A DNA stretch of 64,000 bases. It comes from Escherichia coli. GTDB taxonomy: Bacteria; Pseudomonadota; Gammaproteobacteria; Enterobacterales; Enterobacteriaceae. Each line of letters begins with the position of its first letter. Position 1 is the first letter of the stretch. The stretch lies in NCBI RefSeq assembly GCF_044647545.1, contig NZ_CP172818.1. One strand, 5' to 3'. Positions 32,158 through 33,229 of the stretch are shown here, in pieces. Under the pieces are notes generated by a model, which searched no databases, had not been told where the DNA came from, and worked only from the letters and a program-made list of their open reading frames with translations. Position numbers and translations under genes: made by a program.

Positions 32158-32181
32158 TTTCAGTACTCTAAAATGCCCGGT

Positions 32182-32224
32182 AAAAAAAAAAAAAAAAAAA
32201 AAAAAAAAAAAAAAAAAAAAAAAA
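32182..32224 (+). repeat. 43-nt adenine homopolymer
   Basis: Counted directly: uninterrupted A run from 32182 to 32224. Confidence 0.95.
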
Positions 32225-32245
32225 TACGCATGTATTTGAACGGCG

Positions 32246-32274
32246 TTTAAAATGGTTTTAAATGAAACTATAAT
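32246..32274 (+). promoter_or_regulatory. promoter-like element TTTAAA-N17-TATAAT facing the T-depleted tract
   Basis: Perfect -10 hexamer TATAAT at 32269..32274 with TTTAAA 17 bp upstream; no evidence of use. Confidence 0.3.
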
Positions 32275-32377
32275 GCGGTAACGATAGGTATTGAAACGCG
32301 TGATGAAATTAAATGCTACAACGTTATACGACGAACTCAAAGGCAAGGTGATTTGACTTCCTGATCACGAAGTGTTC

Positions 32378-32925
32378 CGGCCCGGCAGCCAAAAGGGGGG
32401 AAAAAGCGGCGCGGAAAAAAAAAAAGCGGGAGGGGAAAGGGGGGATAACCGGGGAGCAAAGGCGGCGAAAGCGAAAAACAAAACGCAAACCCACAAACGG
32501 AGGGGGGCGAAAGGAGAACAAAAAGAAAAGGCGAAAGAAAAAAACGCAAAACCAACGCGACGAGGAAGGCCCAACCGGCAAAAAAAAAAGCAACGACGGA
32601 AAAAAAAGTGAGAAGTGGCAACAAACGGCGCGCAACGCGAAAAAACGTCAGGAACGCCCCAGGAAGGGGTGAGCGGGGCGGGGGGGAAAAACCACCACGC
32701 AACAGCGCGGGAGCCGGGGGGGAGAGGCGCCACACAAACGAAGAAGAAGGGAAAAAAAAAAGGAGGGGGGAGAAAGGAAAAGGGAAAAAAGAACGACACA
32801 ACGGGGGCGGGGAAACAAGAACCAAAGAGCGCCAAAACAGGAAGGACACAAGGAAAGCGCGTAAACAAGGGCGGATACAAACAAACGGAAACCACAGAGA
32901 ACAGACAAGGAGGAAAAAAAAACCA
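32378..32925 (+). repeat. T-depleted low-complexity tract (A/G/C only, about half A)
   Basis: Only 7 T in about 548 nt by direct count; many G3-G7 and A5-A10 runs; all six frames open because stop codons cannot occur. Confidence 0.9.
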
Positions 32926-33229
32926 ATAAAGTACGTGTTGAGTTGATTTTCATTTGTTTGTTACCCAGTTGATTTTGCATATCCAGTATTCGGCCTACGC
33001 GAGGGCGCAGGCCGAATCAGATGTCTTACAACAACAATCCGGTGCGACACGTTGTTTTTCGAAGAAGCCCAGGGTCCGTGTTCAGAATAACAGCAAAAAG
33101 GGGGAGGGGATGCGGCACAAAAAAAATCTTTTATCGCCTCTAATTAAGATGAAGTTTTTTCAACTTCCCTGATTTTTCCTCACCATCATTGGTCATTTTT
33201 CGGTTGACGCCCCTCGGCTTTTCCTTCAT

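Follow-up and report, generated by a model that had tools for sequence, protein, structure and literature searches.

What fills the space between metL and metF in this Escherichia coli DNA, and does it represent new biology? In the 64,000-nucleotide stretch that we analysed (the window), a spacer of 1147 nt separates the end of the metL ORF (32157) from the start of metF (33305), against 348 nt in K-12 MG1655 (4132268-4132615). The original prediction had described the resulting excess of about 0.8 kb as non-native sequence inserted at the locus, made up of a 43-nt A homopolymer, a stretch of ordinary composition with a promoter-like element, and a tract of ~550 nt nearly devoid of T, and had suspected an artefact. 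Our comparisons bear out the length, the homopolymer and the T-poor tract, and indicate that the metL-metF segment is almost certainly an artefact of sequence construction rather than new biology.

Homopolymer runs of at least 9 nt occur in the 64 kb only as the A43 run and as four A runs inside the T-less tract, and 32363-32937 is the sole stretch of the window in which any base (here T) falls to 5% or less per 100 nt. Between 32380 and 32930 (about 550 nt) we counted 8 T, with P about 4e-53 at the T frequency of the window. The 527-nt T-less tract (32401-32927) consists of 245 A, 175 G, 99 C and 8 T, a strand asymmetry of 0.46 for A versus 0.015 for T. The damage reaches further than the span 32158-32956 singled out in the original prediction, to about 33154; beyond it, the metF promoter is intact, as had been proposed (Table 1).

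We found no sign that the segment encodes a product. ORFs of 79-176 aa are present in the T-less tract in all frames, but because every stop codon on either strand requires a T on the plus strand, we regard them as a mechanical product of T depletion and have discarded the idea that they are coding. The promoter-like element does exist as a TATAAT-type match at 32246-32274, but such matches are no commoner than expected by chance (2 found versus 0.9 +/- 0.9 in shuffles). Rfam 15 covariance models, run on both strands of 31900-33500, gave 0 hits at E<=1, and repeats within the spacer amounted to low-complexity self-matches and one 18-nt imperfect inverted repeat, with no IS end or repeat family. 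These results agree with the earlier statement that the segment holds no credible ORF, repeat family, IS end or recognisable RNA.

A native two-gene island between metL and metF

The window is E. coli DNA whose nearest relatives are ST648-type genomes, including FDAARGOS_497. Over four stretches (1-27291, 27299-32158, 33155-38464 and 60959-64000) it shows one mismatch in total to FDAARGOS_497, compared with an identity to K-12 of only 96-98%, and the flanks remain identical to ST648 as far as the stops of metL and argH. FDAARGOS_497 carries intact genes between metL and metF. Among the 5,426 complete E. coli genomes in our comparison set, 1841 (about a third) natively harbor a 3.2-kb two-gene island at this position, and the locus is thus a known presence/absence polymorphism of an accessory nucleotidase island. 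The first island gene, on the minus strand, encodes a 376-aa hypothetical protein (WP_000105527.1) with a sub-threshold match to an IS1/IS1595 zinc ribbon (E=3e-4, residues 74-105), and the second, on the plus strand, encodes a 517-aa UshA-like bifunctional metallophosphatase/5'-nucleotidase (WP_000694759.1). In the ST648 genome NZ_CP033850.1 (L003 39988-41118), 37 nt of the hypothetical gene lie antisense to the 3' end of metL.

Using an ST648-type island locus (L002) as the reference, we obtained four BLAST anchors between the metL stop and the metF start, all in the same order and orientation as in the island (Table 1). The odd segment is, by these alignments, a colinear, shrunken and garbled derivative of the island, blended with K-12-type spacer sequence. 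The check for a known element that had been suggested therefore returned a match for the underlying sequence, the metL-metF accessory island itself, and the terms "non-native" and "inserted" do not hold, because a native E. coli island colinear with the segment occupies this exact locus in the 1841 genomes. The remnant at 32285-32357 also matches genes for a "5'-nucleotidase protein" of Salmonella enterica (77-78% nucleotide identity, in records mis-filed in a phage collection), so homologues of the nucleotidase gene exist in enterobacteria other than E. coli.

Table 1. Features of the metL-metF spacer in the window and their counterparts in the ST648-type island locus L002.
Feature	Window position	Strand	L002 position	Identity	Description
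24 nt after the metL stop	32158-32181		1627-1651	96%	Fragment of the hypothetical gene of the ST648 island; K-12-type ends ("TAATTTCAG..." and "...CCCGGT")
A43 homopolymer	32182-32224	+			Pure insertion at K-12-type spacer position 25/26
AT-rich "ordinary" stretch	32225-32286			70% (to K-12 spacer 25-78)	Per-base blend of K-12-type spacer and ST648 nucleotidase gene; holds the chance TATAAT
Best-kept mid-gene remnant of the nucleotidase gene	32287-32400	+	3001-3125	86%	Frame-breaking indels
T-less tract	32401-32927	+			3'-terminal 888 nt of the nucleotidase gene, reduced to 527 nt with the order retained
Island-to-metF spacer	32928-33154			about 92%	Weaker form of the signature: T and G deletions, changes to A
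metF promoter and leader	33155-33304	+		100% (to ST648-type genomes)	Undamaged
BLAST anchor	32156-32179		1627-1651	96%	
BLAST anchor	32287-32400		3001-3125	86%	
BLAST anchor	32852-32874		3893-3917	92%	
BLAST anchor	32928-33359		4014-4450	92%	

To place the T-less tract, we relied on a global alignment to the last 888 nt of the nucleotidase gene, which scored far above both shuffled sequence (z=15.5) and random window segments (z=7.4). In-order matches accounted for 473/527 tract bases (90%), versus 80 +/- 0.7% for shuffles. The shortening is strongly selective: reference T was deleted at 168/193 positions (87%) and reference A at 40/249 (16%), with C lost at 90/203 and G at 74/243, and deletion depended on base identity at p=2e-52 (chi-square). 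In the island-to-metF spacer, the loss of T and G and the changes to A run on in weaker form as far as 33154. Both diversity-generating-retroelement (DGR)-type A mutagenesis and deaminase hypermutation were considered and rejected, because the tract was shortened by deletion (888 to 527 nt) rather than altered by substitution.

Compared with the intact island, the window preserves locus, gene order and orientation, while 2.8 kb has become 0.77 kb. Neither the 376-aa nor the 517-aa ORF survives, with indels every few bases; of the first gene only 24 nt remain, and of the second ~640 nt in garbled form. A43 takes the place of about 1.3 kb, made up of the remainder of the hypothetical gene and the initial ~480 nt of the nucleotidase gene; T is almost wholly gone from 527 nt, and the ends are K-12-type in structure. 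The identity expected of an E. coli allele (>90%) was not reached: the best stretch is 86-88% identical over 114 nt, and the remainder is detectable by gapped global alignment only.

Traces of the island-less K-12-type spacer

Immediately after the metL stop, the window does not continue into the island and instead has a K-12-type junction (TAATTTCAG...CCCGGT). Positions 1-26 of the K-12 spacer align to 32158-32182 (84.6%) and positions 25-78 to 32225-32288. The A43 run, which falls between these two pieces, is therefore a pure insertion, located exactly where about 1.3 kb of the island is missing from K-12-type genomes. When the left part of the segment (130 nt) was aligned with both alleles, 62 sites were common to all three sequences, 39 were shared with ST648 only, 18 with K-12 only, and 3 were unique to the window. 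These counts point to a per-base blend of the two alleles rather than a recombinational mosaic. The K-12-type spacer contains no equivalent of the gene portion to which the T-less tract corresponds.

Set against the K-12-type spacer as a whole, the window shares the "TAATTTCAG" junction right after the metL stop, is weakly similar to and colinear with K-12 positions 1-78 and 114-168, and is 97% identical over the last 155 nt, which hold the metF promoter. Absent from K-12 are A43, the 114-nt remnant of the nucleotidase gene, the T-less tract (527 nt) and a stretch of about 130 nt of downstream spacer of the island type. Its K-12-like pieces are only 70-90% like any K-12-type genome that we searched, with no exact copies. 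We also considered whether the K-12 spacer might descend from the island by decay, and dropped this idea when the similarity between K-12 and the island in the first 190 nt proved not significant. One K-12-type genome, NZ_CP030331.1 (L001 896-1030), has a RefSeq annotation for a 44-aa hypothetical protein (WP_000660586.1) on the minus strand of the short metL-metF spacer, just upstream of the metF promoter.

Damage elsewhere in the window and searches for another copy

All differences between the window and ST648, with the exception of one SNP, fall where ST648-type and K-12-type genomes differ structurally. In stretches where the two types are colinear, among them the first 27 kb, the window is free of damage. 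Between rpmE and yiiX, a K-12-type 7-nt filler (TGGTCGT, 27292-27298) sits between flanks that are 100% ST648-type, and the 7.4-kb island of rhsC, an RHS fragment and IS1 carried by the nearest relatives is absent. This combination of filler and flanks occurs in no complete E. coli genome of our set, where the best match was 98.7% over 301 nt. The yijF-gldA intergenic repeat region (38465-38620) is an ST648 allele that has lost about 20 bases, mostly G, in the first ~60 nt past the point at which ST648 and K-12 diverge, and its far edge has a 2-nt gap in common with K-12. Two smaller deletions relative to ST648 coincide exactly with sites at which K-12 has extra REP-element copies: 1 nt (T) at 49149, opposite 78 nt in K-12, and 7 nt (CATTGTT) at 54042, opposite 304 nt.

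The largest damaged region, 58581-60958, lies between argH and oxyS/oxyR and is a copy, at ~65% identity, of the ST648 genes for D-mannonate dehydratase (manD) and an MFS transporter. It is A-rich, riddled with indels and without an intact ORF, and it too has K-12-like ends, and a deletion of K-12 type that removes the final ~190 nt of the transporter gene. Within it we identified a G analogue of the T-less tract: over 60752-60934, 181/183 bases are in-order matches to the MFS-transporter gene, insertions are absent, and reference G was deleted at 78/99 positions (79%, p=7e-23). The earlier suspicion of an artefact is strengthened by these observations, in which flanks identical to ST648 are combined with like damage at every other structurally polymorphic site of the window.

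We were unable to find a second copy of the metL-metF segment or of 58581-60958 in the 5,426 complete E. coli genomes, and distant BLAST searches with the left part, with 58581-60958 and with the K-12-like end gave, in the same genomes, best relatives of 65-86% identity (the ST648 allele) and 89-90% (the K-12-type ends). Four exact-match probes (27-30-mers), half of them taken from the T-less tract and half from the left part, had no hit in 100,044 species-representative genomes or in 241 M metagenome records. ORFs of the tract and of 58581-60958 were absent from a 15-billion-protein collection, a negative weakened by differing start-codon choices. A plasmid/vector collection yielded matches only to two chromosomes mis-filed as plasmids, via the nucleotidase gene, and a phage collection yielded only the 5'-nucleotidase homologues of Salmonella and E. 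coli.

Origin of the segment

Taken at the level of sequence, the alignments show that the template was an ST648-type accessory island threaded onto an island-less K-12-type structure. Sequence common to both structural types is perfect or blended, and sequence found only in the island is shrunken by base-selective drop-out (of T here, of G elsewhere), replaced by homopolymer, or missing. Our preferred reading, to which we assign a probability of roughly 0.6, is that the segment is a technically corrupted rendering of a known polymorphic locus, probably produced by a consensus over the two structural types. Such a consensus would have been called per column over sequences or reads of both types, possibly when an ST648 isolate was assembled or polished against a reference that lacks the island, or alternatively as a mixed-strain long-read consensus; the mixed-strain model would require a second strain that never wins at core SNPs. 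In island columns, support for "base present" would lie near the calling threshold, such that some bases would be systematically dropped and others kept, and register would be lost progressively away from the anchors. On this model, the organism would in truth possess either an intact 3.2-kb island at the locus or the short K-12-type spacer, and the sequence as drawn is predicted to have no function. We know of no pipeline that drops only T or only G over hundreds of bases or that writes a 43-nt A run.

A possible though less favored origin lies entirely in silico, with the variable segments of an ST648 sequence either rewritten by software (a generative DNA model, a profile sampler or a simulator) or deliberately corrupted. 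Failures of sampling would in that case account for the blended alleles, the homopolymer and the drift in composition. Many features would suit this account: K-12-type and ST648-type alleles are blended base by base with very few unique changes, sequence degenerates into low complexity (A43 and runs of A and G), fidelity is high beside conserved anchors and decays away from them, the K-12-like ends match no natural genome exactly (90% at best), and the damaged segments and their ORFs have no copy in the public collections searched. Yet the other ~60 kb carries exact ST648 strain-specific alleles, and generation would have to be confined to chosen segments that were then stitched back, while the deletion-only, base-selective tracts (181/183 in order, no insertions) resemble filtering or voting more than free sampling. 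An in-silico origin would fit nearly as well as a consensus artefact, and the feature would be non-biological in both.

That the DNA is real, an old decayed island pseudogene intermediate between the ST648 and K-12 types that was imported by recombination or shaped by localized strand-specific mutation, is in our judgment improbable. The left part, with its few window-unique changes, does resemble an evolutionary intermediate, K-12-type junctions are shared, and variation is to be expected at variable intergenic sites. Against this, the flanks are identical to ST648 up to the metL and argH stops and the interior diverges by 35% or more; import by recombination should have left donor SNPs in the flanks, and would need ends at gene boundaries on both sides and at several loci. 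The changes are dominated by deletion and select bases on one strand (T 87% versus A 16%, elsewhere G 79%), and a content of 0.46 A versus 0.015 T is unlike known mutational decay in E. coli. Preservation is uneven, with 97.5% identity beside 65% in one supposed pseudogene, and a 43-nt homopolymer would be highly unstable. Nothing of the kind appears in the 5,426 complete genomes or the 241 M metagenome records, and the pattern recurs at every structurally variable site of the window. The identical flanks, base-selective deletions, uneven preservation, unstable A43 and recurrence together exclude natural decay in practice. We consider it very improbable that an ST648-like E. coli really carries this DNA through some locally targeted, strand-specific process that would delete or replace one base type (T in one tract, G in the other) and add a homopolymer in accessory islands only, leaving adjacent core genes untouched. 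Were the sequence real, it would imply an unprecedented base-selective mutational process.

Hardly credible at all is a foreign insertion, whether a mobile element, the remnant of a vector or cassette, or a poly(A)-tailed, retro-copied transcript. The spacer is 0.8 kb longer than in K-12 and a poly-A run is present, as such an event might leave them, but the order of the segment follows that of an island native to this locus in E. coli. An IS or mobile-element insertion was rejected for want of terminal inverted repeats, a target-site duplication and a transposase ORF; a vector or synthetic cassette was rejected when the plasmid matches proved to run only through the nucleotidase gene, and there is likewise no reverse-transcriptase ORF. 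The A run lies upstream of the plus-strand gene remnant and is therefore not the 3' tail of a nucleotidase transcript.

Read as a corrupted consensus, the segment matters mainly for quality control. Variable sequence is garbled or missing at no fewer than four places in the window (27292-27298, 32158-33154, 38465-38620 and 58581-60958), and calls of gene content, pseudogenes or "novel elements" at strain-variable loci from this source should be distrusted until checked against reads.

Consensus and polishing artefacts arise at structural variants in reference-guided or mixed-sample assemblies. The window departs from a simple reference-guided consensus, which predicts exact reference sequence, in that its K-12-like pieces are inexact. 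In other respects it resembles artefacts of this class: the reference filler TGGTCGT is kept at an unsupported junction, long insertions have dropped out or become garbled, deletions come with slight misplacements (-1 nt at 49149, -7 nt at 54042), and the correct alleles of one strain are placed on the structure of another genome.
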